Shown here one piece after another: positions 27,557 through 60,762 of a stretch of 64,000 nucleotides of DNA (position 1 is its first letter; each line of letters begins with the position of its first letter). The notes below the pieces were generated by a model. It did no database searches. It saw only the letters and a list, made by a program, of their open reading frames with translations, and was not told the DNA's origin. The position numbers were made by a program, and so were the translations under genes. Source of the stretch: an uncultured Pleurocapsa sp. (GTDB lineage Bacteria > Chloroflexota > Anaerolineae > Aggregatilineales > Phototrophicaceae); contig CAZZJW010000003.1 in NCBI GenBank assembly GCA_964654755.1, forward strand, positions 19,719-83,718. The letters are read 5' to 3'.

Positions 27557-28350
27557 GCCGATGGCCCCGTCGCGCCGAGCAGGCGCACCAGCGCGGGCAG
27601 GGCGTGCCCCGCCGCCGCAGCGATCCACACCACGGCCAGCGGGGTGATATCGCTGCGTTCCGGATTGACCTCGATGATGCGTGCGCCGGCCCCGTGCGCC
27701 TGCGCTGGCAGGCCGGCGGCTGGATAGACCAGCCCGGAGGTGCCCACCACCAGCATGACATCGGCGCTGGCGCAGGCTTCGCGGGCGGCGCGCAGGGTGG
27801 CCTGTGGCAGCGCCTCGGTGAACCACACCACATCCGGGCGAATGGGCGCGCCGCAGTGCGGGCAGGCGGGCGGGCTGCCATCCGCCGGCGCGGGCAGGGC
27901 GCCCCGGTCCACCGGCGTCGGGCTGCCCTGACAGTCGGCGCTGCAGCGATCGGCGTCGAGCGTGCCGTGCAGGCGGATGACGCGCGTGCTGCCTGCGCTC
28001 TCGTGCAGGGTGTCGACGTTCTGCGTGATCAGCGTCAGATGCGGCCAGCGGGCTTCGAGCGCGGCCAGCGCATGATGGGCGGGATTGGGCTGGGCGCTGT
28101 GCAGCTTTTCGCGCCGCGCCTGATAGAACGCCCACACCAGCTTTGGATCGCGCGCGAAGGCTGCCGGCGTGGCGAGCTGTGCCGGGTCGTAGCGGGCCCA
28201 CAGCCCGGTCTGCGCTTCGCGAAAGGTGGCGATGCCAGACTCGCGGCTGACTCCAGCGCCGGTCAGCACGACGAGCCGCCTGCAGTCGCGCAGCAGGCGA
28301 ACGGCATCGCGCAGCGAAGTGTCGTAGTCGTGACGGGAACTGGGGCTCAC
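27553..28350 (-). CDS. cobB: NAD-dependent protein deacylase (Sir2 family, CobB-like)
   Basis: GAGVSRESGIATFR, TQNVDTLH, zinc ribbon C..C...CPHCG, VVWFTE, LVVGTSGLVYPAA. GTG 28350 follows AGGA. Confidence 0.85.
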   Translation of the reverse strand: MSPSSRHDYDTSLRDAVRLLRDCRRLVVLTGAGVSRESGIATFREAQTGLWARYDPAQLATPAAFARDPKLVWAFYQARREKLHSAQPNPAHHALAALEARWPHLTLITQNVDTLHESAGSTRVIRLHGTLDADRCSADCQGSPTPVDRGALPAPADGSPPACPHCGAPIRPDVVWFTEALPQATLRAAREACASADVMLVVGTSGLVYPAAGLPAQAHGAGARIIEVNPERSDITPLAVVWIAAAAGHALPALVRLLGATGPSA

Positions 28351-28507
28351 GCCGATCCTGCGCTGTCTGGTTGAACTGACAAGTGTGGAGATTATAGCGA
28401 ATCCCCGCCTCTCGCGGGAAATTCGTCTGCCGGGCGGCGCAGCGGCCGTCATGCACCGGCCCGGCGGGCGCGCTACACTCGTGCTGCAGACGGCCACGGG
28501 GGTGGAC

Positions 28508-28924
28508 ATGGTGCGGATCACGCGGATTGGGGTGAGTTCAGCGTTCCGGGTGGGGGCGGTGCTGAGCGCGATCACGACGGTCGTGTTCGGGCTGGTGACA
28601 GTGCTGCTTCAGGCTGGCTTCATCGGTCTGGTGGTGGGCGGCTACAACGAGGCGGCGGCTGGTAGCTACTCCGGCGGCGGCAGCACGATCAACCTGGGCG
28701 CGATCAGCGCGTTCAGCGGCGGCGCGCTGGTGTGCGCCTATCTGGCCAGCATCGTGGCAGTGGCGCTGGCGGGCGGGCTGGCGGCGGCGGCGCTGGCGCT
28801 GTTCTACAACGGGACGGCCCGGCTGATCGGCGGCCTGGAGGTGCACGTGAGCACGCTGTCCCCGCAGCGCGAGCAGGATGCGCTGATGGAGGAGATTCAG
28901 GCCGACCTGTCGTACCGGCAGTAG
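28508..28924 (+). CDS. DUF3566-like small membrane protein
   Basis: RITRIGVSSAFRVGAVLSAI...LALFYNGTARLIGGLEVHV resembles the DUF3566 pattern (recalled from memory). Two or three TM segments. Confidence 0.55.
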   Translation: MVRITRIGVSSAFRVGAVLSAITTVVFGLVTVLLQAGFIGLVVGGYNEAAAGSYSGGGSTINLGAISAFSGGALVCAYLASIVAVALAGGLAAAALALFYNGTARLIGGLEVHVSTLSPQREQDALMEEIQADLSYRQ

Positions 28925-28959
28925 ACGGCCCACGCGCTTCACTCGGAGTGCTGGCTGCA

Positions 28960-28989
28960 TTGTTCCTGCGGGCGGCATCAGGTTATACT
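28960..28989 (+). promoter_or_regulatory. candidate promoter of the STAND gene (TTGTTC-18 nt-TATACT)
   Basis: TTGTTC ctgcgggcggcatcaggt TATACT lies about 40 nt upstream of ATG 29030. Confidence 0.35.
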
Positions 28990-29029
28990 TTGGTTTCATA
29001 AGCGGTATGGCATCGGCGGGAAGAGCACA

Positions 29030-31633
29030 ATGACCGACTTTACGCCTCATGAAGCCCCTGCGAGATCGGTTCAGGCGCTGCCAGTGCAGCCGCCAGCCCG
29101 GCTGATCGGGCGCGAGGTCACGCTCACACGCGTGTACTCGCAGCTGCGCGAGCTTAAGCCTGTGCTGCTGTACGGCCCGCCGGGTATCGGCAAGTCGGCG
29201 CTCGCCGCCACGCTCGCCAGCGCCTACACCGAGATGGAAGGCGGGGCGCTTTACCTGACGGTGCACAACGATACGGTGTCGGAGCTGATCGCCCGGGTGG
29301 GCCGCGCCTACCGGGATGAGGCGCTCACCGAGGCCGAGTCGCCGCTGTCGAACGCGCTGCGCGCTGCGGAGCGCCTGGCGGAAGACAAGCCCCTACTGGT
29401 GCTCGATGGTCTGCTCAACCCGCATGCCGTGACCGAGTTCGTCACCCGCTGCGCCAACGCCTATCCGATGCTGCTGGTCAACGAGAGCGAGATCGAAGGG
29501 CCGTGGACGACGCAGCGGCTGGGCAAGCTGGAGCCGGCGGCGGCGGTGGCGATGTTCAAGGCGCAGGCCGGCGCGCAGAGCGACTCGGCGGATGCGGATA
29601 TCGCGGCGCTGGCGGATACGCTGGGCTACACGCCGTTCGCGCTGTCCGTCGCTGCTGGCTGGGCGCGCGCGAACAAGGGGGCGCCGGCGGCCTTCACCGC
29701 GCTGCTGCCGAAAAGCCCGTCGCCGGATGTGCCGCCGTCGCTGCTGGCACTGACCGCCAGCTTCCGCAGCCTGGGCAGCGGCGCGACCAACGCGCTGCAG
29801 GGCCTGCTGCTGGTGATGGGCGCCACCTTCACGGGCAGCGCCAGCGCCGAGATGATGGGGTTGGTCGCCGGCGCGCCCACCGAGATCATCACGGGCGCGC
29901 TCAACCAGCTGGTGCAGCGCGGACTGATTGAGCGCAGCACGCGCTATGGCCAGCCGTACTACCGCCTGCACGAGATCACCTATACCTTCCTGCAGACGTG
30001 GCTGCGCGGCTCGAAAAGCCTCGATCCGCTGCAGGCCAAAGTGCGCGAAGCCGTGCGCGTGTTCACCCGCCGCTATGCCGATGCCGCCCGCGCCAACCCC
30101 GGCGATGCCACCGCCGGCGACCGGCTGGCGGCTGAGATGGAGTTGATCCTGGCGACGGCGCAGTGGGCCGCGCAGGGTGACGACCGCGACCTTGTCAATC
30201 AGCTTGCCGGGGCGCTGCTCAGCGCAGGCGCTTTCGTCAGTGAGCGCGGCTACACCTACGATCTGCAGCTGCTGCGCCGGCTTTCGGCCAGCTCGACCAC
30301 GCCATTCCCCGCACATGCTGCTGTCGCTGAGCCGGCACGCCCGGCGGCGCCCGCGCCTGGCCCGGTGTCGATCATGGATACGCTGGCCGCTGCTGAGGCC
30401 CCGCTGACGATCGCGCCGGCGGCGGAGGAAGACGAGGAGGAGCCGGGCGCGCCGGACCTCATCCCGCTGCAAGACGACGCGGATGACGAGGCTGTACCCG
30501 AAGACGCCACGCCGGATGACGAGGCGGACGTGATCGATGACGACGCGGATGAGGACGAGCCTGGCGAGGCTGAGATTGAAAGCCCGCTGCCGTTCGTGGA
30601 CGATGCGCAGGCCGACAGCGAGACGCAGCAGCACCGTCGCGCCGCTGGCCTCGCCCGCCAGGCGGGCGACCGGCGTACGCAGGCAGACGAGCTGGCGAGC
30701 CTGGCGCGCACGCAGGAGCGCGAAGGCAAGGACACCGAGGCGATCGCCACGGCTTCAGAGGCGCTGGCGCTGTACGAGGAACTGAACGATACGCCCGGCA
30801 TGCTGAGCGCGCTGGAGGCGCTGGCCCGGCTGACCGTGCGCACCGAAAATGCGCAGGCTGCCGTGCTGCACGCCTCGCGCGGGGCGGCGCTGGCGCGCGA
30901 GTTCGGCAACGCACCGGCGCGCATGGCGCTTCTGGCGGCGCTGGGCGATGCGCGGCAGCTGCTGGGCGAGAGCGAGGATGCGCTGCGGGCCTACAGTGAG
31001 GCGCTGGAGATCGCGCTGGGCAGCGCGGATGTGCTGGCCGCTGGGCAGATTCAGCTCAAGCTCGGCTATGCGCAGTTGGATGCTGGCGACGCTTCCAGCG
31101 CGATGAAGACCTGGGACGAGGCGCTGTCTCAGTTCCGCTCGCAGAACCGGCGCGATCTCGAAGCGCGTGCGCTGGGCGGGATCGGCACGGCCAACGGTGA
31201 GCTTGGCCGCTGGACGGAGGCGGTCGGCTACTTCGGCTCGGCGCTGCACATCGCCCGCGAGGTGGGCGATCGTGCGGAAGAGGCGCTGCAGCTCAGCAAC
31301 CTGGCCGATGCGCATGTGCAGGCCAATCAGCTTGGCCAGGCAGTGATGCGCTACCGCCAGGCGCTGCATCTGGCTTACGAGGCGGACAATGACGATGCGG
31401 TGATCAGCACCGTGGTCGATCTGGGGCGGCTGCTGGTGGAAAGCCCTCGGCATCTGTCGATCGCGGAACTGCTGGTGAACGATGCGCTGACGCGCGCGCC
31501 GCATGATCGCGATCTGCGCCGGCTGAAGGAGCGGATCGAGGACGAGCGCGAGGCGCTGGGGGAGAGCGTGGCGTACAAGCCGGTCGCTGGCACTGCCCGC
31601 GATTATGCGGCCAACGCCTACCGCATGGAGTAG
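29030..31633 (+). CDS. STAND-class P-loop NTPase (NB-ARC/AAA-like) with acidic linker and C-terminal TPR array
   Basis: Walker A LLYGPPGIGKSALA, Walker B PLLVLDGL, winged-helix-like middle region, D/E-rich linker (EEDEEEPGAPD...DDDADEDEPGEAE), then about 8 TPR-like repeats. Confidence 0.75.
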   Translation: MTDFTPHEAPARSVQALPVQPPARLIGREVTLTRVYSQLRELKPVLLYGPPGIGKSALAATLASAYTEMEGGALYLTVHNDTVSELIARVGRAYRDEALTEAESPLSNALRAAERLAEDKPLLVLDGLLNPHAVTEFVTRCANAYPMLLVNESEIEGPWTTQRLGKLEPAAAVAMFKAQAGAQSDSADADIAALADTLGYTPFALSVAAGWARANKGAPAAFTALLPKSPSPDVPPSLLALTASFRSLGSGATNALQGLLLVMGATFTGSASAEMMGLVAGAPTEIITGALNQLVQRGLIERSTRYGQPYYRLHEITYTFLQTWLRGSKSLDPLQAKVREAVRVFTRRYADAARANPGDATAGDRLAAEMELILATAQWAAQGDDRDLVNQLAGALLSAGAFVSERGYTYDLQLLRRLSASSTTPFPAHAAVAEPARPAAPAPGPVSIMDTLAAAEAPLTIAPAAEEDEEEPGAPDLIPLQDDADDEAVPEDATPDDEADVIDDDADEDEPGEAEIESPLPFVDDAQADSETQQHRRAAGLARQAGDRRTQADELASLARTQEREGKDTEAIATASEALALYEELNDTPGMLSALEALARLTVRTENAQAAVLHASRGAALAREFGNAPARMALLAALGDARQLLGESEDALRAYSEALEIALGSADVLAAGQIQLKLGYAQLDAGDASSAMKTWDEALSQFRSQNRRDLEARALGGIGTANGELGRWTEAVGYFGSALHIAREVGDRAEEALQLSNLADAHVQANQLGQAVMRYRQALHLAYEADNDDAVISTVVDLGRLLVESPRHLSIAELLVNDALTRAPHDRDLRRLKERIEDEREALGESVAYKPVAGTARDYAANAYRME

Positions 31634-31646
31634 CAGTTGCGCTGGT

Positions 31647-33233
31647 TCAGGTCAGCGGCAGCCAGAAGCCAAAGGTGCTGCCGTGCCCGAGCTGGCTTTT
31701 CACCCACACTTCGCCCTGGTGGCGCTCGATCACGGTTCTGACCAGATGCAGGCCGAGGCCACGTCCTTCGATGCCTTCCACGCCTGGGCTGCGCGCGCGG
31801 AAGAATGCCTCGAACACGCGCGGCAGCGCCTCTGGCGCAATGCCCGGGCCGCTGTCTGACACGGTGACCTCCATTCGGCCATCGCGCAGCGCTGCGCGCA
31901 GGGTGATCCGCCCGTGTTCTGGCGTGTACTTGCTGGCGTTGTCGAGGTAGTTCTCCACCGCTTCGCGCACCAGCGGCCCGTTCATCCGCACCATCGTCGG
32001 CCCATCGAAGTGCGCTTCAACGTCCAGCGTCTGGCTGCGCGCCTCGAAGTACGGGCGCATGTGTTCGACAGCGGCTTCCAGCACGAGGCGGAAATCCATG
32101 CTCTCGACCATCTCCAGCGGAGAGGTACGGATCTTCTCGACCCGCAGCAGGTCGTCCAGCAGGCCCTGCATGCGGTCGATGGCGCGGTAGATGGCGTCGA
32201 GGTGCTCGTTGATGGGAGAGCCCTCCTCGACTTCGAGCGCGATCAGCGAGCAGTAGCCGACGATCAGCGCCAGCGGGCTGCGCAGATCGTGCGAGGCCAT
32301 GTTGAGCATCTCGTCCTTGAAGCGGTTGAGGTCGCGAAGTTGGGTGATGTCGCGCACCACGATCACGTGACCGGGGGCCTCCTGACCGCTGCGCCAGGTG
32401 GTGATGGTGACGGCGTAGTCGCGCAGCTCGGCGCTGGAGCGCGCCTCCAGGATGCGTACCGGCTCGTCACTCCCATGCTGCGTGATCGCGTCCTGAAGCT
32501 GCGCCAGGACCTCGTTGGCGGCGGCCAGATCGCGCATCTGCCGGCCGAGTGCCTGCGCTTCGCTGCAGCCAATCAGGGCGGCGCCGGCAGCATTGACCAG
32601 CAGCACAGTCCCCGCCCCGTCCAGCACCAGCAGCACATCGGGCATGGCAGAGAGGATGGCGGCGAACTGCCGCTCGCGCTGCTGCATGCGGCGCAGCATG
32701 TGCGCGTTCTGCAGCGCGACGGTGGCTTCATTGGCGATGATGGAGAGCACGTTCAGCTCGTGCGCGGCATAGCGGCCGGGCTGGCTGTGCTGCAGCGTGA
32801 GCACGCCCAGCACACGCCCGTGAAAGGCCATCGGCACGCACATCACCGCGCCAGCCGCCGAGGTGACGCCCTCGACATGCACCCAGCGCGGGTCTTCTGC
32901 CGCATTGGCGATCAGCACGCCCTGGCCGTGTGCAAGCACCCACCCAGCGAGTCCATGATCCAGGATTTCTGCCGGGTATGCACCTTCGCCCGCTGTGATG
33001 CGCTGCACCGGCTTCCCGACGCGGTATTCCAGCAGGGCCGCTTTCTGCCCGGAGGGCGGGTCTGCGACCAGCAGCAGGCTGGCGCGTTCGGCGCGGAATG
33101 CGCTGGCGGTCGTTTCGATGACGCGCTCAAACAACTGATCGGGATCGGCCAGCGTGAGCATCGCTGAAATCTCCGACAGCAGCGTGAGGTCTTCGGAAGA
33201 GACAGAGCGCAGGAACGACGTTTCCGACATCAC
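31647..33233 (-). CDS. GAF-PAS sensor histidine kinase
   Basis: GAF (VMCVPMAFHGRVLGVLTL), PAS (MPDVLLVLDGAGTVLLVN), H-box MASHDLRSPL, HATPase_c (DNASKYTP, DSGPGI, GRGLGLHLV, GHGSTFGFWLP). Confidence 0.9.
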   Translation of the reverse strand: MMSETSFLRSVSSEDLTLLSEISAMLTLADPDQLFERVIETTASAFRAERASLLLVADPPSGQKAALLEYRVGKPVQRITAGEGAYPAEILDHGLAGWVLAHGQGVLIANAAEDPRWVHVEGVTSAAGAVMCVPMAFHGRVLGVLTLQHSQPGRYAAHELNVLSIIANEATVALQNAHMLRRMQQRERQFAAILSAMPDVLLVLDGAGTVLLVNAAGAALIGCSEAQALGRQMRDLAAANEVLAQLQDAITQHGSDEPVRILEARSSAELRDYAVTITTWRSGQEAPGHVIVVRDITQLRDLNRFKDEMLNMASHDLRSPLALIVGYCSLIALEVEEGSPINEHLDAIYRAIDRMQGLLDDLLRVEKIRTSPLEMVESMDFRLVLEAAVEHMRPYFEARSQTLDVEAHFDGPTMVRMNGPLVREAVENYLDNASKYTPEHGRITLRAALRDGRMEVTVSDSGPGIAPEALPRVFEAFFRARSPGVEGIEGRGLGLHLVRTVIERHQGEVWVKSQLGHGSTFGFWLPLT

Positions 33234-33332
33234 CTTCTCAGCACGGACAGCGCGCAGCCGGTCTGTGAATCTGCGCGCAAGCTTCTCTCAGTGAAGCACA
33301 TTTCACTTCCGAAAATCATGAAGGCTTTGCCG

Positions 33333-34376
33333 TCAGCCGACTGGATTGGCAAGCAGCGCGGCCAGCAGCGCCGTGCAGGCTTCCAGATCGGCGCTGTCGA
33401 CGGTCTCGCTGGTGGTATGCACATAGCGCGTCGGGATGGAGAGCGCGCCGCTGGCGACGCCGGCGCGGCTCGCCTGGATGCCGGCGGCGTCCGTCGTGCC
33501 CAACGTCAGCGTCTCGCGCTGGTACGGGATGCCGTCCGCTTCGGCGCGCGCGATCATCCAGTCGCGCACGGCTGGCGGCACGATCAGCCCGGTGTCCTGC
33601 AGCTTGATGGCCGCGCCCGCGCCCAGCCGGATCTCGTTGCGCTCGACGTTGACCAGATCGCCGGTGGACGTCACATCGATCGCGATCGCCAGGTCGGGCG
33701 CCACCTGGAAGGCCGCGGGCCGGGCCCCGCGCAGGCCGACTTCTTCCTGCACGGTGAACACCACGACGACTTCGTTCTGCACGCGCTTGTTCAGCCGGCG
33801 CAGCGCTTCGATCGCTACCACGCAGCCGACGCGGTCGTCCATCGCCTTGCCGATGATGCGGCTGCCCCGCTGGATCATCTCGCGGTCGAAGCAGGCGGCC
33901 ATGCCGGGCGTGATCCGCCCTTCGCCACCATCGCTGACGTCGATCCAGTATTCATCGAGCGCCGGGGCCGTCTGCCGCCCAGCGTGGAAGTAGTCGGGCA
34001 TGCACAGCGTGCCGATCGTGCCGTCCTCAAAGCGCACGCGCGCGCCCAGCAGCGCGGTGTGCATCAGTCCGCCGATCGGGGCGAAGCGCAGAAAGCCGGT
34101 CTTCTTCTCGACAAACGTCACCATCACGCCGATTTCGTCCATGTGCGCGGCGACCATGATGCGTTTGCCGCCGCTGCCCACGCGGCAGATCAGATTGCCG
34201 AGCGCGTCCACTTCCATGTGGTCGACGAACGGGGCGACACGGCGCTCGATCAGCCGGCGCACGCCGTGCTCAAAACCTGACGGACCCCACGCCTGCGAGA
34301 TCTCGCTCAGCGTGTCGATCAACGTTTCGCTATCCGGGCGCTTTTTCGTTGCGCCGCCTGCCGGTCGCTTCATCAT
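33333..34376 (-). CDS. M42 family metallo-aminopeptidase (FrvX/TET-like), paralogue 1
   Basis: AAHMDEIGVMV, GKAMDDRVG, FTVQEEVGLRGA, and C-terminal ...IPTRYVHTTSE. Confidence 0.85.
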   Translation of the reverse strand: MMKRPAGGATKKRPDSETLIDTLSEISQAWGPSGFEHGVRRLIERRVAPFVDHMEVDALGNLICRVGSGGKRIMVAAHMDEIGVMVTFVEKKTGFLRFAPIGGLMHTALLGARVRFEDGTIGTLCMPDYFHAGRQTAPALDEYWIDVSDGGEGRITPGMAACFDREMIQRGSRIIGKAMDDRVGCVVAIEALRRLNKRVQNEVVVVFTVQEEVGLRGARPAAFQVAPDLAIAIDVTSTGDLVNVERNEIRLGAGAAIKLQDTGLIVPPAVRDWMIARAEADGIPYQRETLTLGTTDAAGIQASRAGVASGALSIPTRYVHTTSETVDSADLEACTALLAALLANPVG

Positions 34377-34410
34377 CCATGTCCCATCGTGTGTTCAGGT
34401 TGTCGAGCAA

Positions 34411-35457
34411 TCAGCGTACGCGCACAGCCTCAGCCGTCAGCCGGGCCAGCGCAGCGCGCACAAGGCGCAGGGTATCGTCGTAATCCTGGCGCAGCAGCAG
34501 CGCCGCCGGGCTGTGGATGTAGCGGCAGGGCAGCGAGATCACCGCTGTGGGCGCGCCCGCCCCCGCCATGTGGATGGCGCCGCCATCCGTTCCGCCGCCG
34601 GGATTGGACTTGAACTGATGGCGAATGCCTTCTGCTTCCGCCGTCTCGCGCAGAAAGGCCACCAGCTGCGGCGGCACGATCAGGCTGGAGTCCATCAGCG
34701 AGATCACCGGCCCGCCGCCCATCCGGCAGGTGGGGTTGATCTCGCGTTCATCATCTGCCTGTGCGGTTGGATTGGGCAGATCGTTGGCGGTCGTGCCCTC
34801 CAGCACCAGCGCGACATCGGGCTGCAGCGTGTTCGCCGCCACATGTGCCCCGCGCAGGCCGATCTCCTCCTGCACGGTGAAGGCCGCCAGCACGTCCACC
34901 GGATAGGGCCCGCCCTGCAGCACGTCGATCAGCAGCGCGCAGCCCGCGCGATCGTCAAACGCCTTGCCGCGCAGCATGCGCCCGCCGTCCAGCTCGGTGA
35001 AGGTGCTGTCGAAGGCGATCCGCTCGCCGCGTTTGACCTTGCCCGCTGCCTCGTCCTTGCTGGTCGCGCCGATATCGATGCGCAGGCTGGAGATGCGGAC
35101 GGCGTTCTGGTCCTGATTCTTGTGGATCGGCGTCCATACGATCACGCCCGGCGTGCTGCCGATGCGCACGCGCTTGCCCGGCAGGATGCGGTCATCGATG
35201 CCGCCCACCGCCACAAAGCGGATCAGCCCGTCGCCCTCGAAGCCGGTCACCATCAGGCCGATCTCATCCATATGCGCCGCCAGCATCACGCGAAGCCGGC
35301 GTTCGCCGGTGCCGCGCTGCAGCGCCGTGATGCCGCCCAGCGCGTTGATGCGCACGTCGGTCACGTGCGGGCGGATGGCCCCCAGCACCAGTGCGCGAAC
35401 GGCGTCTTCCTGGCCGGATACGCCGACAGCATCGGAAAGCGTCTGGAGCATCTTCAT
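34411..35457 (-). CDS. M42 family metallo-aminopeptidase, paralogue 2
   Basis: AAHMDEIGLMV, GKAFDDRAG, FTVQEEIGLRGA, LPCRYIHSP. Confidence 0.85.
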   Translation of the reverse strand: MKMLQTLSDAVGVSGQEDAVRALVLGAIRPHVTDVRINALGGITALQRGTGERRLRVMLAAHMDEIGLMVTGFEGDGLIRFVAVGGIDDRILPGKRVRIGSTPGVIVWTPIHKNQDQNAVRISSLRIDIGATSKDEAAGKVKRGERIAFDSTFTELDGGRMLRGKAFDDRAGCALLIDVLQGGPYPVDVLAAFTVQEEIGLRGAHVAANTLQPDVALVLEGTTANDLPNPTAQADDEREINPTCRMGGGPVISLMDSSLIVPPQLVAFLRETAEAEGIRHQFKSNPGGGTDGGAIHMAGAGAPTAVISLPCRYIHSPAALLLRQDYDDTLRLVRAALARLTAEAVRVR

Positions 35458-36533
35458 GCGCTCGCCTCCTCGTAGGCAATCGACTGCATGAACTGGCCGT
35501 CCAACTCGCTGATGAACAGCGCCATCAGCCGGCCAGCCCGCTCAACATCGCGCAGGTCGATGGTCTCGACGGCGGAATGCATGCTGCGCAGCGGGATCTC
35601 GAGCAGCGCAGTTGGAACGCCTTCGCGGGCGATCTGGATGGACCAGGCATCGGTGCCGCTGCTGGCGGGGATCACATCGTCCTGCAGCCGGATCTCATGC
35701 CGCTTCGCGGTCTCGCGCAGGCGGTCGTACAGCTTCGGATGGAAGTTCGCGCCCAGGCCGATGCCCGGGCCGCCGCCCATCTCCAGCGCCTCGTCGGCAG
35801 AGACGCCGGATTGCGGCGCGAAGCACACGTCGAGCGCGATGGCGATGTCGGGCTGCAGGCGAAATGCCGAAGTGCGCGCGCCGAACAGCCCGGTCTCTTC
35901 CTGCACCGTCGCTACGGCGGCCACATCCCATGCGTGGTGCATGCCCTGCAGCGCGTGCAGGCAGGCGCTGACAGCGGCCACAGAGGCGCGGTCGTCCATC
36001 GCCTTGCCGGCCACCTTCGTGCCCAGCAGTTCGATCATCGGCGCATCCACGGTGATCAGATCGCCGATGCGCACCAGCTCGTGCACGCGCTCTGCCGGCA
36101 GGCCGACATCGATCAGCAGCTCGTCGAACGACGGGTAGCGCGCGCGCGCCGCCTGCGTCAGCAGGTGTGGCGGCCTGGCGGCAACGATGCCGGGCAGCAC
36201 TTCGCGGCCATGCACCAGCACGGTCTGCGCCATCAGCAGGCGATTGTCTGTGCCGGCCACGCGGTTGAAGCGGATGAAGCCTTCGCAGATGCCCGTCACC
36301 ATCATGCCGATTTCGTCCATGTGCGCGGCCAGCATGATGGTGCGCGGGGCGGGCAGCGGGCGCGTGGCACGGCGCAGGGCGATCAGGCTGCCCAGGCCGT
36401 CCTCGTGCAGCTCATCTGCACATGGCCCCCATTCCTCGCGCAGGATAGCGCGCAGCGGGCCTTCGTGGCCGCTGGGGGCGTGCGTCTCGGTCAGGCGGCG
36501 CAGATGCGCCTTGATGTCGAAGCTCAACAGCAC
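35454..36533 (-). CDS. M42 family metallo-aminopeptidase, paralogue 3
   Basis: AAHMDEIGMMV, GKAMDDRAS, ATVQEETGLFGA, IPLRSMHSAVE. Its stop overlaps the start of paralogue 2 (ATGA). Confidence 0.85.
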   Translation of the reverse strand: MLLSFDIKAHLRRLTETHAPSGHEGPLRAILREEWGPCADELHEDGLGSLIALRRATRPLPAPRTIMLAAHMDEIGMMVTGICEGFIRFNRVAGTDNRLLMAQTVLVHGREVLPGIVAARPPHLLTQAARARYPSFDELLIDVGLPAERVHELVRIGDLITVDAPMIELLGTKVAGKAMDDRASVAAVSACLHALQGMHHAWDVAAVATVQEETGLFGARTSAFRLQPDIAIALDVCFAPQSGVSADEALEMGGGPGIGLGANFHPKLYDRLRETAKRHEIRLQDDVIPASSGTDAWSIQIAREGVPTALLEIPLRSMHSAVETIDLRDVERAGRLMALFISELDGQFMQSIAYEEASA

Positions 36534-36554
36534 GTCTCCTCATCGATCAGGGGG

Positions 36555-37148
36555 TCAGGGGCCGGGCGGCAGCACCGTTTCGGTCGGCGTGGCCGTCGGT
36601 GGGCAGCCGGTCGGCGGCGGCCCTGGCTGGCTTGGGCACAGATCGAGATTGTCGGCCACGCCGTCTCCGTCGCTGTCCGGCACCGGGATGGGCGTGGCGC
36701 TGGCGAAGACGAACGGCGTGTCGGTCGCGATCGGGATGGGCGATGGCGTCGCGCTGGGTGGCGGCGCGACAGTCGGCGGCAGGGTGAGCGTGGGCGCAGG
36801 CGTCGAGGTTGGGAAGATGAACGGCGTGGCCGTCGGGGGCGCCAGCGTCGGAAAGACCACGGTCGGAAAGACGATCGTCGGGAAGAACTGGCCGGGCGTG
36901 GGCAGCAGGCCGCCTCCGCCACCGGGCAGCGGTGTGATGCTGGGGAAGGCGATGCGCGTGGCGGTCGCCAGCGTGCGGGTGAGCGCGGGCTGGGTGGTTG
37001 CCAGCGGTGTGGGCGTGGCGCGGACGCTGGGGGCCGTCCCCAGCAGCACGAAGCCCGCGCAGTAGAACGGAAGCGTCGCCAGAATGATCAGAAACAGCAC
37101 GACCTGCAGGTTGCGCCGCCGCCGATCTGCGGGTGCTCCGGCTACCAT
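36555..37148 (-). CDS. membrane-anchored Pro/Thr-rich protein with thrombospondin-type-3-like motif
   Basis: One N-terminal TM segment (VVLFLIILATLPFYCAGFVLLG). Long P/T-rich repeats (FPTIVFPTVVFPT). DSDGDGVADNLDLCP near the C-terminus. Its start overlaps the elp3 stop by 7 nt. Confidence 0.6.
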   Translation of the reverse strand: MVAGAPADRRRRNLQVVLFLIILATLPFYCAGFVLLGTAPSVRATPTPLATTQPALTRTLATATRIAFPSITPLPGGGGGLLPTPGQFFPTIVFPTVVFPTLAPPTATPFIFPTSTPAPTLTLPPTVAPPPSATPSPIPIATDTPFVFASATPIPVPDSDGDGVADNLDLCPSQPGPPPTGCPPTATPTETVLPPGP

Positions 37149-39040
37149 TCCTTCTCCTCAGGCTGCTCCACGCGCGCGCTGAACATGTTACCACAAGCCG
37201 CCTGATCCGACGAACCCGCCAGCAGGCGGTGCTGATACAGCGCGCCGTCGCTGAATCCGCGCCGTCGGTAATAGGCGCGCGTGCCCACCGCGCTGATGAC
37301 GCTCAGCCGGGCGCAGCCGGCCTCCGCAGCCAGCAGCGCAGCATGCTCGATCAGGCGCGCACCCAGCCCGCTGTGCTGCGCCCGCCCCGGCTGGCTGCCG
37401 CCGATCTCGACCGCCTGCCCGTACACGTGCACCTCGCGGATGATCGCCGCCCCGGCCAGTTCGGCGCACAGCGGCGCGGCCTCCGGCGCGGGCAGGCGCA
37501 GGCGCAGAAAGGCAGCGATGCTGCGATCCGGCGCGATGAACTGCAGGAAGGCCTCGCGGCCGCCGGCTGCCTCGTACAGCGTGGTCTCCAGGCGTAGTTC
37601 ATCCATGTCCACCAGGCGAAAGCGTACCTCGCGGGCGCGGATGTCGGCGCTCTTCTCGCCGCGCGCTGCCAGCGCCTGCTCGACGAGCTGGCGGAAGTTG
37701 GTCGTGCGGTTGCCGTCGACGATATCGGTGCCGGGGATGTCGCGGATGACGCGCGTCAGGCGGCAGTACTCCGGTGTGCGGCGGAAGCACGCCATCAGCA
37801 GCTCGAGCAGCTCGTCGTGCGTGTAGGGCCGCCAGCGCCCTTCCTGATAAGGACGCATCAGTTCAGCGCTCTCGATCAGCGAACACGGATAGATCTTGAG
37901 CTCGTCGGGCCGGTAGGCGGGATCGGCGAACAGCCGGTCGTAATCGTCGCGGTCGCTGTCCGGCGTCGCGCCGTACAGATTGGGCATCCAGTGCGCGTGG
38001 ATCTTGAAGCCGGCAGCGCGCAGCAGGGCGACCGCCTCGCGGGTGGCCTGCGTGGTGTGTCCGCGCCGATTGAGGCGCAGGATGCGGTCGTCGAGGCTCT
38101 GAAAGCCGATCTGCACCTTGGTGGCGCCCAGCCGGCGCAGGCGCAGCGTCTCTTCCGCCGTCAGGTAGTCTGGCCGCGTTTCGATCACCAGCCCGACGCA
38201 GCGCACGGCGGCGGCCTCGTTCTCGCGGTGCGCGGCCTCCAGCTCCTGCCATGTGGCGAACTCGTCGGTCGGGCGGCGCGCGCCCCCCGCCGCAAGCAGC
38301 GCGGCCAGCCGGGCGGCCTGCTGGCGTTCGCTGGCGTACAGGCGCTGCACGGTCTGGTTGTAGCTCTCGTGCAGCGCCGCGCCCTGCAGCCGCACATTCG
38401 GCGCGGGCTGCGCCGGGTCGAAGGGCGACTGCTCGTGTATCGCCTGCCAGACTTCGGCGGAGCGGTCTTCGCCGCGCCCGAAATCGTGCAGCGCGTCAAA
38501 GGCGCGGCGCACGAACCAGATCTGATAGCTCTCCGGGTAGAACGACCACGTCCCGCCCAGGATGAGCAGCTCGATCTTGTCGGTGGGGTGGCCGGTGTTG
38601 AAGAAGGCGCGCAGGCGCGTCATGGTCTGGAGATAGGGGTCGAAGGCATTCTGCGCCGCCCGCTGCGCGCCGGGCTCATCGGAGAGGTAGCTCTTGGGCA
38701 TGCGCACGTCGTTGGGGCAGAAGATGCACTCGCCGGGGCAGGGATACGGCCGGGTGAGGATGGTGACCGGCGTCACGCCGCTGCTGGTGCGCACTGGTTT
38801 CATGCGCAGGCGCTCGATGACCGCCGGATCGAAGGGAGGCAGCGCTTCGCCGGCGAAGGCGCGGTAGGCGCGCAGCAGATCATCGCGGCTGAAGATGCGC
38901 CCGCCAGCCGTCCGCCCGGTCTGGCGCACCAGCCGGTCGAGGCGCTGGCCGGTGAGCGTGGCATCAGCCGCCACCGCCTGCAGGATGGTCAGCAGTGCTG
39001 CGCGGTGCTGTTCGAGGTCGAGGGCAGGGCGAAAGGTCAT
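37142..39040 (-). CDS. elp3: Elp3-family radical SAM/GNAT enzyme (tRNA wobble-uridine carboxymethylation type)
   Basis: Radical-SAM Cys triad CPGECIFCP. Elp3-like blocks ELLILGGTWSFYPESYQIWF, VGLVIETRPDYL, VQIGFQSLDDRILRLNRRGHT, DELKIYPCSLIESAEL, TRVIRDIPGTDIV. C-terminal GNAT (IIREVHVYGQAV, QHSGLGARLIEHAA, SVISAVGTRAYYRRRGF). Confidence 0.85.
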   Translation of the reverse strand: MTFRPALDLEQHRAALLTILQAVAADATLTGQRLDRLVRQTGRTAGGRIFSRDDLLRAYRAFAGEALPPFDPAVIERLRMKPVRTSSGVTPVTILTRPYPCPGECIFCPNDVRMPKSYLSDEPGAQRAAQNAFDPYLQTMTRLRAFFNTGHPTDKIELLILGGTWSFYPESYQIWFVRRAFDALHDFGRGEDRSAEVWQAIHEQSPFDPAQPAPNVRLQGAALHESYNQTVQRLYASERQQAARLAALLAAGGARRPTDEFATWQELEAAHRENEAAAVRCVGLVIETRPDYLTAEETLRLRRLGATKVQIGFQSLDDRILRLNRRGHTTQATREAVALLRAAGFKIHAHWMPNLYGATPDSDRDDYDRLFADPAYRPDELKIYPCSLIESAELMRPYQEGRWRPYTHDELLELLMACFRRTPEYCRLTRVIRDIPGTDIVDGNRTTNFRQLVEQALAARGEKSADIRAREVRFRLVDMDELRLETTLYEAAGGREAFLQFIAPDRSIAAFLRLRLPAPEAAPLCAELAGAAIIREVHVYGQAVEIGGSQPGRAQHSGLGARLIEHAALLAAEAGCARLSVISAVGTRAYYRRRGFSDGALYQHRLLAGSSDQAACGNMFSARVEQPEEKEW

Positions 39041-39164
39041 GGGCGGGGCGCCGGATCACTGTCGTGCGACAGCCAGCGCGCACGACCGGCGGCAGCGAAA
39101 GCGGGAAGGCTGGGCGCACTTCCCGCTGAGGATGACCGTGGAACTGAGGCGGTGCGCGCGCGCG

Positions 39165-39416
39165 TCAGCCTTCCGGCGGCGGCACGGGCAGGTCGTCGAT
39201 GGCGACATCCTTGTACTTCGCGCCCTCTTCCACCAGCATCACCGGGATGCCGTTGCGGATGGGATATTTGTAGCCGGACTCTTTGCTGACCAGCCAACAT
39301 CCTCGCACCAGCTCCAGCCGGCCAGGGTCTGCGCCGCGGTCCTTCCAGTGCACGGCGACCGGGCAGCGCAGCAGTTCGAGCAGTGCCGGGTCAATCGCCG
39401 GGGTGGTTTCGCTCAT
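39165..39416 (-). CDS. Trm112-like small protein (UPF0434 type, partly Cys-less)
   Basis: 83 aa. LLELLRCPV...YKYPIRNGIPVMLVEE matches the Trm112 N- and C-terminal signature. Only part of the zinc-knuckle Cys set is present. Confidence 0.7.
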   Translation of the reverse strand: MSETTPAIDPALLELLRCPVAVHWKDRGADPGRLELVRGCWLVSKESGYKYPIRNGIPVMLVEEGAKYKDVAIDDLPVPPPEG

Positions 39417-39456
39417 GGTGTGTCTCCGCGTGACGATACAACTGCGTGTTGAGTAT

Positions 39457-39485
39457 AGCATAGCGGCGGGGCGGCGGGGCGTCAA
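39457..39485 (-). promoter_or_regulatory. candidate promoter of the Trm112-like/elp3 unit (TTGACG-17 nt-TATGCT)
   Basis: The minus strand reads TTGACG ccccgccgccccgccgc TATGCT, about 40 nt upstream of the Trm112-like ATG. Confidence 0.5.
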
Positions 39486-39504
39486 TCTGCGCGCCGGCCC
39501 GGCG

Positions 39505-40428
39505 TCAGCTGCTCTCCACGCCCCACAGCAGCAGGCGGTTGTCACCGGCGGCGCTGGCGAGGAACTGCCCGTCCTGCACGAAGGTGAGCGCCAGCACCGG
39601 ACGGGTGTGCCCGCTCAGGCTGGCCAGGGGCTGGCCGCTGGCCGCATCCCACAGCCGGATGACGCCGTCGCGCCCGCCGCTGGCCAGCACGTCTCCGGCG
39701 GGGGAGAACGCCACGGCATCGGCGCCGCCGTCGTGCGCAGTCAGGCGCTGTTGCAGCGTGAGCGCGTGTTCGTGCGCGTGAAGCAGCGCGATCTGCCCAT
39801 CGCGGAAGGCGACGGCAGCCTGCCCGCGCCTGCCCACCGCCAGATCGCGCGCCCAGATCGGCTGGTCGTCGCTGTCCTCGTGCGTCAGGAAGGCCACGCT
39901 GCTGGCCCGGCGCACATCCCACAGCCGCACCACGCCGTCCCAGCCGCACGAGAGCAGCCGGCCATCGTCCAGAAAGCCGACGCGCGCGATCTCGTCGCCG
40001 TGAAAGCCGAGGGTGCTGGGCGCGCCATTCCCGCCGAACAGCAGCAGCGCGCCGCTGCCACAGCCCGCCGCCACCCATGCGCCATCCGGGGACACCGCCA
40101 CGGCATTGACGGGCGACCCGGCGGCCCAGGTGTGGGTGAGCGTCAGCCCGGGCAAGCTGAGCCGGTAGACGAACGTGTCGCTGCTGCCGGCGGCCAGCCA
40201 ACTGCCATCGGGGGCGAAGGCCGCGCTCTTGACCGGGGCGCTGTGCGCGAAGCGGGCGTCCGGCGCGCCGCCGAATCCCCCGGTCCACAACCACACGCCC
40301 GCGCCACAGGCGGCGGCCAGCGCGCGCGCCGGGGCGCTGAAGGCGAGCTCGGTCGGCAGCGCGATCGCCGCTTCACCCAGCAGGGTGATCCGCGAGGCGG
40401 TGTGAGGGGTGATTGAAAGCAAGGCCAT
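39505..40428 (-). CDS. WD40-repeat beta-propeller protein
   Basis: Repeats ending in W-D/L-W (GRDGVIRLWDAASG, GWDGVVRLWDVRR, DNRLLLWGVES). ATG 40428 preferred over 40476. Confidence 0.8.
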   Translation of the reverse strand: MALLSITPHTASRITLLGEAAIALPTELAFSAPARALAAACGAGVWLWTGGFGGAPDARFAHSAPVKSAAFAPDGSWLAAGSSDTFVYRLSLPGLTLTHTWAAGSPVNAVAVSPDGAWVAAGCGSGALLLFGGNGAPSTLGFHGDEIARVGFLDDGRLLSCGWDGVVRLWDVRRASSVAFLTHEDSDDQPIWARDLAVGRRGQAAVAFRDGQIALLHAHEHALTLQQRLTAHDGGADAVAFSPAGDVLASGGRDGVIRLWDAASGQPLASLSGHTRPVLALTFVQDGQFLASAAGDNRLLLWGVESS

Positions 40429-40512
40429 AGCAAACTCTGATCTGATCGTAATCTGCGCGTGATATCGTTTTGTCACGTAGCCGGCTCAGGGCAGCGATGG
40501 AGGGCAATCACG

Positions 40513-40905
40513 ATGAGCGCAGCGGAAACCGTAACGCAGGACAGCGTATTTGGCAATCTGAATGGTCATGAGTACATGCGCCTGACCACGTTTCGCAAGT
40601 CTGGAGAGGGCGTGCCGACGCCGGTGTGGTTCGCGCGCGAGGGCGACCGGCTGTATGTGACGACGCAGGCGACATCCGGCAAGGTCAAGCGTATCAGCCA
40701 CACGGCGCGCGTGCGGATCGAGCCGTGCACCGTGCGTGGCGACGTGCTGGGGCCGGCGGCGGAGGGCAGCGCGCGCGTGGTGACGGGCGAGGAGGCGCAG
40801 CGGGCCAACGCCGCGCTCTCGCGCAAGTACGGGCTGAAGAAGCGCCTGTTCGAGCTGTTCAGCCGCGGCGGCAACCGCACCTATCTGATGATCACCAGCG
40901 CATAG
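40513..40905 (+). CDS. PPOX-class (pyridoxamine-5'-phosphate-oxidase fold) probable F420/FMN-dependent protein
   Basis: YMRLTTFRKSGEGVPTPVWFAREGDRLYVTT...KVKRISHTARVRIEPC pattern of PPOX class F420-dependent enzymes. Confidence 0.7.
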   Translation: MSAAETVTQDSVFGNLNGHEYMRLTTFRKSGEGVPTPVWFAREGDRLYVTTQATSGKVKRISHTARVRIEPCTVRGDVLGPAAEGSARVVTGEEAQRANAALSRKYGLKKRLFELFSRGGNRTYLMITSA

Positions 40906-40924
40906 CACGCGCCGTGTGGCCGGG

Positions 40925-40930
40925 TATAAT
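40925..40930 (+). promoter_or_regulatory. perfect TATAAT box 8 nt before the GT4 start codon (possible leaderless mRNA)
   Basis: cgggTATAATcccgcgccATG. No room for a Shine-Dalgarno sequence. The -35 element is weak (ATAGCA). Confidence 0.35.
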
Positions 40931-40938
40931 CCCGCGCC

Positions 40939-59090: not shown

Positions 59091-60073
59091 TGACGATGCT
59101 GGCCGGGCTGGTTGAGCACTTTCGCCGCCTGCGGGTGGTGGTGGTGGGCGATGTCATCCTTGACGAGTACCTGATCGGGCGCGCGGTGCGCCTCAGCCGT
59201 GAAGCGCCCGTGCCCGTGCTGGAGTTTGAGCAGCGCCAGCTCATCCCCGGCGGCGCGGCCAACCCGGCGGTCAACACCGCGGCGCTGGGCGCGCAGACCA
59301 CGCAGGTCGGGCTGATCGGCGCGGATGCCGAGGGCGAGGCGCTGGAGGAGGCGCTGCGCGGGCGCGGCGTCACGCCCCGGCTGATCGTCGATGGCGGGCG
59401 CGGCACGACGGTCAAGACGCGGGTGCTGGCGCATATGGGCCTGCGTTTTCCGCAGCAGGTGGCGCGGCTGGACCGGCTGTCTCGCGCGCCGCTGGACGAC
59501 GCGAGCAGCGCGGCGGTGGGGGCGGCGCTGGAGCAGGCAGGGCGTGGCGCGGATGTCGTGCTGTATTCCGACTATCAGCTCGGGCTGATCACGCCGGCGC
59601 TGGCTGCGCTGCCGTTCACCGGGCTGCGTGTGGCAGACTCGCAGGGCAGCTTCGAGAAGTACAGCGGCTTTGACGCGGTGAAGTGCAACGCAGATGAAGC
59701 CTCGGCCTGGCTGGGAGTGCGGCTGGAGGGCGATGCTGCGTTCGCCGGCGCGGCGCAGGCGCTGTTCGCGCAACTGAAGCTGCGGCGGTGCATGGTGATC
59801 ACGCGCGGGGCGGATGGCGCGACGGTCGCCGATGCCGGGGGCGCGGCGCACTGCCCGGCCCCGGCCACCAGCGAAGTGTACGATACCGTGGGCGCGGGCG
59901 ATACCGCCGTGGCGGTGCTGGCGCTGGCGCTGGCCGCGGGCGCGGTGCCCGCCGATGCCGTGCGTATGGCGAACGCGGCCAGCGGACTGGTGGTGCGCCG
60001 GGTGGGCAACTATGCACCCAGCGTGGATGAGCTCAGCGCGGCGCTGGCCGCTGCAGAATCCGATAGGCGTTGA
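59090..60073 (+). CDS. PfkB-family sugar kinase resembling HldE/RfaE domain I (heptose-7-phosphate kinase)
   Basis: RVVVVGDVILDEYLIGRAVRLSREAPVPVLE (RfaE-like N-terminus) and DTVGAGDT (PfkB signature). No adenylyltransferase domain. The ATG shares 1 nt with the upstream TGA. Confidence 0.75.
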   Translation: MTMLAGLVEHFRRLRVVVVGDVILDEYLIGRAVRLSREAPVPVLEFEQRQLIPGGAANPAVNTAALGAQTTQVGLIGADAEGEALEEALRGRGVTPRLIVDGGRGTTVKTRVLAHMGLRFPQQVARLDRLSRAPLDDASSAAVGAALEQAGRGADVVLYSDYQLGLITPALAALPFTGLRVADSQGSFEKYSGFDAVKCNADEASAWLGVRLEGDAAFAGAAQALFAQLKLRRCMVITRGADGATVADAGGAAHCPAPATSEVYDTVGAGDTAVAVLALALAAGAVPADAVRMANAASGLVVRRVGNYAPSVDELSAALAAAESDRR

Positions 60074-60749
60074 CCGCGCCCGAAAAGCCGTCTGCGCGGT
60101 AGGCGCGCAGCATGTTCAGCCCGGTCGCCGCGCACAGCGCCTCGATCTCCGCATCGTCGGCATGGTGGCAGTAGCGCAGCGCATGCGTCCCTGCGCGCCA
60201 GTCCAGCAGCGCGTCTCCCGGCTCAGGCGTCATGTCTGCGGGGAAGGGGACCATGCGCTGGCGGAAGCGCTCGTACTCGCCGAAGCGCCAGCAGGCGAAG
60301 CACAGCAGGCCTCCGGGCGCGACGCAGGCCGCCGCCCGCTCCATGAGCGCGAGGCGCCGCTGCAGGCCGGGGATGTGATGCAGCAGGCCGAACAGCGCGA
60401 CCAGGCCGAAGGTGCGGCTGGGCAGCGGGGCGCTGAGCACATCGGCCTGCTGCAGCGTGAGCGACAGGCCGGGCAGGCTGGCGCAGCGTTCGCGCGCATG
60501 GGCCAGCAGGCCAGCATCCGAGTCGATGCCGTGGAAAGTCAGCTCGCCACCCAGCGCGGGATGCAGAAAGCGCGCCAGTCGGCCGTTGCCGCAGCCGATA
60601 TCGAGCACGCTCAGCGGCGGGTGCAGCAGGGGCAGCAGGCCGGACCAGCCCGGCCACGGCTGACCGCGCGTGGCATCGAAGGCCTCGCCGGCGCTGCGGT
60701 AGAATGCCTGATTGAGCGCGTTCAGACGCGCCGCTGTTTCATCGTCCAT
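60033..60749 (-). CDS. class I SAM-dependent methyltransferase, Trm9/ALKBH8-MT-like
   Basis: SAM motif I VLDIGCGNG. Trm9-like blocks FDATRGQPWP (compare HFSxTRxxPWP), LLHHI...RR, CFACW, LRYCHHADDAEIEALC (compare RYYHxFxxGEL). The 3' end overlaps the convergent kinase gene by 41 nt. Confidence 0.7.
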   Translation of the reverse strand: MDDETAARLNALNQAFYRSAGEAFDATRGQPWPGWSGLLPLLHPPLSVLDIGCGNGRLARFLHPALGGELTFHGIDSDAGLLAHARERCASLPGLSLTLQQADVLSAPLPSRTFGLVALFGLLHHIPGLQRRLALMERAAACVAPGGLLCFACWRFGEYERFRQRMVPFPADMTPEPGDALLDWRAGTHALRYCHHADDAEIEALCAATGLNMLRAYRADGFSGAVNAYRILQRPAPR

Positions 60750-60762
60750 CCGGGAGCCGGGC

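Follow-up and report, generated by a model that had tools for sequence, protein, structure and literature searches.

Adjacency of a zinc-less Trm112-like gene and elp3 in a Chloroflexota genome: a probable product of a local inversion

Background

In eukaryotes the action of Elp3/Elongator is followed by that of the methyltransferase Trm9 with its small partner Trm112 (structure 5CM2), and the product is 5-methoxycarbonylmethyluridine at tRNA position 34 (mcm5U34). The Trm112 of the archaeon Haloferax volcanii (HvoTrm112) binds at least eight methylases (PMC6144793). Bacterial Trm112 structures match in the methyltransferase-binding face, and Trm112 is fused to methyltransferases in some bacteria (PMC5372719, PMC6144793); DVU0656 binds HemK, UbiE and Sun (work cited in PMC6144793), and the interaction of YcaR with UbiE has been validated in E. 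coli (bioRxiv 10.1101/2024.04.12.589144). The Elp3 of Dehalococcoides mccartyi (DmcElp3) is called a rare example of bacterial Elp3s (PMC6367351). In the literature consulted, no function of a bacterial Trm112 turned up beyond methylase binding and the YcaR-UbiE preprint. Bacterial Trm112-like proteins and the Elp3 of Chloroflexota are both known kinds. The present report concerns a stretch of 64,000 nucleotides (below, the window) of a Chloroflexota genome deposited as uncultured Pleurocapsa sp. (GCA_964654755.1, contig CAZZJW010000003.1), in which a small gene of the Trm112 type (below, the small gene) lies directly upstream of elp3.

An earlier note on this DNA took the two genes for a functional pair and remarked that none had been described in a bacterium; our literature searches turned up none either. 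We believe, with a probability of about three in four, that the explanation is a different one: the small gene is a stand-alone core gene for a zinc-less Trm112-like protein, whose partner would by family be a methyltransferase, and its position next to elp3 is an accident of an inversion.

Results

The comparison covered 41 genomes of the order including the source genome (G000), i.e., 40 others; the G and L numbers are our labels for genomes and loci. The small protein was found in 40 of the 41 genomes at 58-83% identity and Elp3 in 37; judged by this distribution, the small gene is a core gene of the Anaerolineae/Aggregatilineales lineage. In none of the 40 other relatives are the two genes adjacent: where they share a contig, the distance is 9 to 109 kb (about 9 kb in G023, G012 and G009, 16 kb in G005, 38 kb in G024, 82-83 kb in G011 and G004, and 109 kb in G029), and elsewhere the contigs differ. 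A sample of 301 genomes of the phylum gave a relative of the small protein in 144 (including G266 and G077, flagged as unpublished) and Elp3 in 57; both genes are present in 37 genomes and adjacent only in the source genome, the seven other same-contig cases being at least 132 kb apart. The adjacency is accordingly absent from all 56 other Elp3-bearing Chloroflexota of this sample, and among 80 further loci of the small gene (named Anaerolineae, Aggregatilineales and other Chloroflexota assemblies) none has Elp3 within 4 kb. The functional gene pair proposed in the earlier note is not supported by these counts, and a lack of conservation among related genomes is what that note itself had named as refuting it. 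Loci of the relatives were compared by clustering of open reading frames (ORFs); gene calling based on GC3 is unsuited to the relatives with lower GC content. The commonest neighbour in the 80 loci is a gene for a 902-aa AAA_16/TPR protein immediately downstream of the small gene (30 of 80); less common are an upstream gene for cytochrome c (20) and genes for histidine kinases (11), ThiF-rhodanese (9) and tyrosine recombinase (8), and no methyltransferase cluster was seen around the small gene in these loci.

The origin of the adjacency can be read from the gene order. In G023, G012 and G009 the order is: small gene (+), 902-aa gene (+), histidine kinase (-), M42c (-), M42b (-), M42a (-), elp3 (-), DUF3566 gene (-), methyltransferase (+). 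In the window it is: DUF3566 gene (+), 902-aa gene (+), kinase (-), M42c, M42b, M42a, proline-rich ORF, elp3 (-), small gene (-). The block from the 902-aa gene to elp3 is flipped between unchanged flanks, and it follows that an inversion created the junction; the extent of the block (Table 1) was deduced from synteny with G023, G012, G009, G007 and G017. A single inversion of about 10 kb, specific to the source genome, would have put the small gene directly upstream of elp3, with one breakpoint just 3' of the small gene and the other between elp3 and the DUF3566 gene. The 124-nt spacer would be the resulting junction, with its hairpin nearer the small gene acting as a weak terminator.

The second junction fits the same scheme. 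The promoter-like site before the 902-aa gene matches an element (ATTGC...GTTATACT) that is conserved after the terminator of the small gene in G017, G023 and G012, and the GTTATACT box is kept in G007 as well; the putative promoter of the 902-aa gene travelled with its gene to the other inversion junction. The regions upstream of elp3 align too poorly (MAFFT) for the breakpoint to be fixed or for the decay of a -10 box in place to be proved. The junction next to elp3 is real and not a misassembly, because an independent lake-metagenome contig of 16,275 nt spans positions 37100-40500 with 10 differences; 14 DNA runs hold at least 85% of the sampled words of the stretch.

G007 retains the genus-type junctions. 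In G018 (one of the three closest relatives found) and in L081 (the closest match in the named collection) the small gene abuts M42a, and in G018 the 902-aa gene is preceded by the C-terminal end of elp3; this arrangement implies a different inversion of the same block. On the evidence of gene order, the flank of the small gene is a recurrent breakpoint, and insertions or rearrangements may recur there. No inverted repeats pairing the regions near 28.9 kb and 39.1 kb were found, and no tRNA genes as integration sites were found in 27000-42000 or in seven related loci, L110 included. In 8 of the 80 loci the next gene downstream of the Trm112-like gene encodes a tyrosine recombinase of the phage integrase family (e.g., L110:4439-5509).

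Table 1. Features of the locus and of the source genome discussed in the text (window coordinates unless a genome contig is named)
Feature	Position	Strand	Description
Trm112-like (UPF0434/YcaR-type) gene	39165..39416	minus	83 aa + stop; clade-specific C-terminal tail DLPVPPP
Sigma-70-type promoter of the small gene	39457..39485	minus	TTGACG 39485-39480, 17 nt, TATGCT 39462-39457
WD40 gene	40476-39505	minus	upstream of the small gene; the 88-nt gap between them holds the promoter
Spacer between small gene and elp3	39041..39164	minus	124 nt; putative inversion junction
Hairpin nearer the small gene	39100..39127	minus	9-bp GC-rich stem, 10-nt loop, then UUUCG; terminator-like, short U-tract
Hairpin nearer elp3	39061..39086	minus	8-bp stem, 10-nt loop; 20 nt upstream of elp3 ATG
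elp3	37142..39040	minus	632 aa; radical-SAM + GNAT domains
Block inverted relative to the genus arrangement (about 10 kb, by synteny)	28925..39100		AAA_16/TPR gene, histidine kinase, three M42 peptidase genes, Pro-rich ORF, elp3
Promoter-like site of the 902-aa AAA_16/TPR gene	28960..28989	plus	TTGTTC, 18 nt, TATACT
DUF3566 membrane-protein gene	28334..28924	plus	196 aa; directly upstream of elp3 in relatives, here abuts the 902-aa gene
Trm9-like class I methyltransferase	60033..60749	minus	238 aa; 21 kb from elp3 here
Trm112-like/methyltransferase fusion	G000:C13:11566-12510 (L003:685-1629)	plus	class I methyltransferase
Trm112-like/methyltransferase fusion	G000:C105:6107-7111 (L006:655-1659)	minus	class I methyltransferase

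The small ORF begins with the ATG at 39416, which is preceded by a GGAGA ribosome-binding site, and stops at 39165-39167 (protein MSETTPAIDPALLELLRCPV...YKYPIRNGIPVMLVEE...DLPVPPPEG). Its best phmmer match in PDB is 2pk7 (E 4.9e-5), then 2kpi, 2jny and 2js4, which are bacterial UPF0434 proteins. The AlphaFold model, built on an alignment of 29 orthologues, has a predicted local distance difference test (pLDDT) score of 91.3 and contains the elements H10-15, E33-37, E41-44, E50-54 and H62-67, that is, a fold of the zinc-knuckle type (N-terminal helix and small antiparallel sheet). UPF0434 proteins rank first in Foldseek with this model and archaeal Trm112 next. In a second structural comparison all 20 matches listed are chains of the Trm112 family, with 2pk7_B the best (Z 6.0), archaeal Trm112 6zxw_H at Z 5.6 (root-mean-square deviation, rmsd, 1.8 A over 48 residues) and 6f5z_D at Z 5.5; values of Z below 8 are modest, although the domain is tiny and sequence and structure concur. 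The four Cys/Asp zinc ligands are not present in the alignment of the 29 orthologues: C18 is the sole invariant Cys, the remaining ligand positions being V/A/H or variable, and a zinc site is therefore not expected. The C-terminal tail ending in DLPVPPP is conserved among the orthologues and was matched in the phylum survey only within the same class. Sequence and modelled fold together mark the product as a Trm112-like protein of the bacterial UPF0434/YcaR type that lacks zinc, and the earlier description of a Trm112-like ORF without most of the zinc-knuckle cysteines is borne out.

The promoter of the small gene agrees with the consensus at 9 of 12 positions and is the only sigma-70-like site within 36400-40700 (4.3 kb) in a consensus scan, which covers sites of the sigma-70 type only; 50 shuffles gave a mean of 0.2. 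Of 79 loci, all from different species, 53 carry the pattern TTGACN-N16-18-TATACT no more than 140 nt ahead of the orthologue, the background rate being 0.017 per 130 nt, and a looser pattern was found in 20 of the 29 relatives' loci of the first set. With such phylogenetic conservation, the claim in the earlier note that the small gene has a promoter of its own, TTGACG-17-TATGCT, is strongly supported at the sequence level. A second box, TATACT, is at 39452-39457, the -10 region reading TATGCTATACT; the conserved TATACT box is here 22 nt from the -35 box, and TATGCT is at the proper 17 nt. The -10 region (39452-39462) looks as if 5 bp had been inserted or duplicated in the conserved TATACT promoter, a -10 box at the 17-nt spacing being retained. 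In two studies RNA contigs stop at 39435 and 39438, which is 14-17 nt past the TATACT box, and the contig of RNA library X15 has adapter letters past its end; a 5' end near 39435-39438 is thereby hinted at, but weakly at best. With a near-consensus promoter and, in many relatives, a terminator of its own, the small gene is to all appearance normally a stand-alone single-gene unit.

Two stable stems in the spacer had been reported as well. Both exist, each displaced by one base, and only the one nearer the small gene is more stable than shuffled sequence: folded alone it has -19.5 kcal/mol and z of -3.04 (2 of 200 shuffles are as stable), against -18.0 kcal/mol and z of -0.57 for the one nearer elp3 (50 of 200), which is not above chance; for the entire spacer z is -2.12 (5 of 200). 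Perfect stems of at least 8 bp are not enriched in the window (24 in 64 kb versus a mean of 30 in first-order Markov random sequence); nonetheless, two of these 24 are both inside the 124-nt spacer. A terminator scan (rule: 5 T in 8 bases) found none, since the stem nearer the small gene is followed only by UUU. A GC hairpin with a T-run is present just 3' of the small gene in at least 9 of the 28 relatives' loci. The hairpin nearer the small gene has the look of an ordinary terminator that probably leaks; the other has no demonstrable role, and the suggestion that the hairpins are processing signals setting the ratio of the two products is unproven. Two natural variants, T>G at 39060 and G>A at 39061, hit the outer pair of the stem nearer elp3 without a compensating change; no variants were seen in the other hairpin in four runs. 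A search of Rfam over 38800-39700 left the spacer unmatched and returned only a chance miRNA match inside elp3 (E 0.22).

The product of elp3 scores 459.8 bits with TIGR01211 (cut-off 350) and matches Radical_SAM, Radical_SAM_C and Acetyltransf_7 of Pfam; its start codon concurs with the N-termini of the orthologues. Elp3 has 608-646 aa in most relatives of the order versus 454-480 aa in four complete ORFs from small-genome Chloroflexota (L161-L163, L169), and it is widespread in Anaerolineae (30 of 33 sampled genomes of the class besides the source genome).

A TA[CGT]AAT box is found upstream of the elp3 start in all seven relatives examined, and the spacer in the window has not a single TA dinucleotide and therefore no -10 box. 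Together with the terminators of the small gene in relatives, this suggests a weak terminator and a possible dependence of elp3 on read-through. It is thus quite possible, although we put it at a little under even odds, that the inversion made a new two-gene unit, in which elp3 has lost its own promoter and is read from that of the small gene, the hairpin nearer the latter being a leaky terminator that sets the ratio of the products. The scan of 36400-40700 with no further promoter-like site, the mere UUU tail of that hairpin, and a contig from RNA library X15 that runs unbroken over 38979-39438 (the small gene and the spacer together with 62 nt of elp3) all agree with such a unit. Yet the contigs show neither the strand nor a single transcript, and RNA libraries can contain DNA; the scan is limited to sigma-70-type sites; and the positional homology of the intergenic regions is uncertain, the locus having 70% GC versus 56% in the loci of the closest relatives. 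The depth of the X15 contigs is 108.5 over the small gene versus 37-38 over elp3, but these are values per contig and cannot rank the genes; stretches of X15 without RNA-contig cover (e.g., 38742-38978) are not informative.

A methyltransferase of the window had also been flagged as relevant in the earlier note. Seven of ten fetched loci from other Chloroflexota families (L161-L163, L167-L170) have a divergent methylase of about 215-260 aa beside elp3. The best solved-structure match of the one in G115 is Trm9 (5cm2_Z, E 7.8e-9), and its best match in the source genome is the methylase gene of the window (E 2.5e-34, 34% identity, full length). Orthologues of the latter occur in 32 of the 41 genomes; in 13 of the 40 relatives they are head-to-head with elp3 at 246-1137 nt, and in 15 they are within 4.5 kb of it. 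The methylase of the window taken alone gives only generic class I matches in PDB, Pfam and NCBIfam, and Trm9 emerged solely through the family profile (29 sequences), for which 5cm2_Z is the best PDB match (E 5.4e-15, 58.4 bits; the next has 48.8 bits, generic methylases trailing by about 10 bits). Of the nine Trm9 residues mutated in PMC4678810, seven (R29, D72, H115, H116, W145, W168 and R241) fall on columns that are invariant in the family; Cys stands opposite Y243, and N271 falls outside the alignment. Judged by the family profile, this methylase is Trm9-like, and methylation of 5-carboxymethyluridine at tRNA position 34 (cm5U34) is a plausible prediction for it. In G000, G007 and G018 the methylase gene adjoins not elp3 but a DUF692/MbnB-like gene (60712-61584 in the window).

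It is tempting to propose a pathway in trans, in which the small protein is the Trm112 subunit of this methylase and the two convert cm5U34, the product of Elp3, into mcm5U34, as their counterparts do in archaea and eukaryotes. The small gene would then stand next to elp3 by accident, and the three genes would nonetheless cooperate. We offer this pathway tentatively, at clearly less than even odds. The family profile has its best match in the Trm9 of the Trm9-Trm112 crystal, with seven of nine tested residues kept; the divergent arrangement of methylase and elp3 recurs in 13 of 40 relatives and in seven of ten loci from other families; and neither MnmG nor MnmE was found over the family cut-offs in the source genome (96.4% complete), which has only GTPase domains and a 53-bit fragment. 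Prediction of a complex between methylase and small protein scored 0.55 (runs 0.00, 0.56 and 0.55), while the best of three controls scored 0.01; contact agreement between the runs is at least 0%, and the pLDDT of the partner is at least 70. In calibration of the tool, 116 of 157 solved complexes attained its mark, as did 2 of 215 mismatched pairs; of those that attained it with scores of at most 0.60, only 18 were among the 157 complexes, and both passing mismatches were in this range. This modelled complex is weak support for the interaction: Trm9-Trm112 complexes have been solved, and the model may have passed the pair by remembering them; moreover, one run of three gave 0.00.

Against the pathway, G026, G028, G039 and G040 have no Elp3 or methylase match and keep the small protein (71-76% identity), and a relative of the small protein occurs in 107 of the 244 Elp3-less genomes of the phylum sample. 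Conversely, five genomes of the f31 family (1.4-1.9 Mb, all Elp3-bearing) show no stand-alone Trm112: matches to PF03966 in f31 genomes lie inside frames of 272-823 aa. Of the five, G061 and G096 are the two with Elp3 loci in the comparison, and both have a divergent methylase beside elp3. The Cys in place of Trm9 Y243 and the unaligned N271 do not favour it either. Of the Trm112-Trm9-Elp3 idea in the earlier note, then, the Trm9-like nature of the methylase stands and the predicted complex lends the idea weak support, but the retention of the small protein in four relatives with no Elp3 or methylase match tells against it.

We presume, by family, that the small protein would be a small partner or activator of class I S-adenosylmethionine (SAM) methyltransferases, probably of several, the Trm9-like enzyme being a plausible client; binding or activation of enzymes of this class is probable by analogy. 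What is known of such proteins points to several clients rather than to a dedicated role in an Elp3 pathway. In the source genome, Trm112-like zinc-knuckle domains are fused to two class I methyltransferases (one C-terminal and one N-terminal fusion); also encoded are PrmC and a menaquinone/ubiquinone C-methyltransferase, MenG/UbiE (212.5 bits, over the family cut-off). That MenG/UbiE, and not a tRNA enzyme, is the main client seems unlikely to us. The YcaR-UbiE interaction validated in E. coli and the binding of UbiE by DVU0656 (both after the sources cited in Background) speak for it, as does the presence of the gene, and it would account for the small protein where Elp3 was not found; but G027 and G033 keep the small protein with no MenG match at E 1e-30 or better, and no neighbourhood link was seen in the related loci.

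Several observations concern the surroundings of elp3. In the relatives its -10 box precedes the start by 24-52 nt; the leader of the two closest ones is 24-27 nt long and lacks an evident Shine-Dalgarno sequence. The DUF3566 gene lies in relatives between elp3 and the Trm9-like methylase gene, co-directionally with elp3, and the C-terminus LLDEIE.DL of its product is conserved; it may be a third member of an elp3/Trm9-like methylase module. Downstream of elp3 are three tandem paralogues of M42 aminopeptidase (33336-36533, minus strand; mutual identity about 31-36%, 61-72% to their orthologues), and the order elp3, M42a, M42b, M42c is kept in G007, G023, G012 and G009. Between elp3 and M42a there is a proline-rich ORF of 197 aa (36555-37148, minus strand), whose overlap with the stop of elp3 is 7 nt; its sole match is a weak one to a thrombospondin repeat, and relatives show a gap of 730-800 nt there.

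Discussion

We believe that the accidental adjacency of a stand-alone gene and elp3 explains the data best; some of them, nevertheless, weigh against it. The score of the small ORF with PF03966 (Trm112p) of Pfam is slightly under the curated cut-off (21.2 versus 22 bits; 22 bits in the search of the whole genome, "with its neighbours in the frame"), and with Trm112_arch of NCBIfam it is 24.9 bits versus a cut-off of 77. The origin of the hairpin nearer the small gene is ambiguous, because the 9-nt string GCTTTCGCT is common to this hairpin and to the region upstream of elp3 in G018; the hairpin could derive from the elp3 side of the junction. The RNA contig that bridges the spacer means that the small gene and elp3 may be co-transcribed. 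Finally, Elp3, the Trm9-like methylase and the small gene are near-universal in the class, and in G023, G012 and G009 a stretch of about 14.5 kb holds all three. A functional link of the three in trans, which we hold as a minority view, is compatible with the near-universal occurrence.

Taken together, the two leading alternatives would mean that Anaerolineae (Aggregatilineales) run a complete mcm5U34 pathway of the archaeal and eukaryotic kind (Elp3, Trm9-like methylase and zinc-less Trm112-like activator) and that here, in addition, elp3 is under the promoter of the small gene behind a leaky terminator; we regard this combination as doubtful. If it were true, a bacterial Trm112 orthologue would for the first time have a function assigned to it, namely a role in the mcm5U34 pathway. 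At any rate, the presence of Elp3, a Trm9-like methylase and a stand-alone Trm112-like protein in a genome where MnmE and MnmG were not found gives a concrete and testable candidate client.

A selected Trm112-Elp3 operon, with adjacency and hairpins serving to couple expression, is very improbable: the adjacency does exist (in 14 DNA runs at 0.85 or more of the sampled words, spanned by a single contig in one run) and the promoter of the small gene is strong, but no other genome examined has it, the small gene of the close relative G018 adjoins an M42 peptidase gene instead, and the elp3-proximal hairpin is no better than shuffled sequence. The Trm112-elp3 pair is best regarded as an accident of one genome, and to cite it as genomic context in favour of a link between Trm112 and Elp3 would be a mistake. 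The locus also illustrates, on a small and clean scale, how a gene deprived of its promoter may come to lie behind that of a neighbour through an inversion.

With the accidental adjacency as our preferred explanation, the components can be compared with the described systems one by one. The nearest are the bacterial UPF0434/YcaR proteins (2PK7, 2KPI, 2JNY, 2JS4, 2JR6, 2HF1), which are the best matches of the small protein in both sequence and structure and share with it the short N-terminal helix, the small antiparallel sheet and the motifs LLxxLxCP and GIPVLL; unlike these proteins of about 60 aa, the small protein has 83 aa, a conserved tail K[WY]KD...DLPVPPP and a single invariant Cys. Archaeal Trm112 (Haloferax volcanii 6F5Z, Archaeoglobus fulgidus 6ZXW) has the same fold (Z 5.5-5.6, rmsd 1.8-2.0 A, 48-49 residues), and HvoTrm112 is likewise without zinc and serves many methyltransferases including a Trm9, according to PMC6144793. 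Unlike archaeal Trm112, the small protein is far below the cut-off of the NCBIfam archaeal model, and its binding to methyltransferases is a prediction.

The Elp3 of the window is of the same family and phylum as DmcElp3, and its 632 aa set it apart from the shorter Elp3 of small-genome Chloroflexota (454-480 aa). The eukaryotic pathway differs in that Elp3 here stands alone, the genes do not form a conserved cluster, Trm9 Y243 is replaced by Cys, and the system is known from its genes alone; what the two have in common is that Elp3, a Trm9-like methylase with seven of the nine Trm9 residues kept, and a Trm112-like protein are all encoded in the window.

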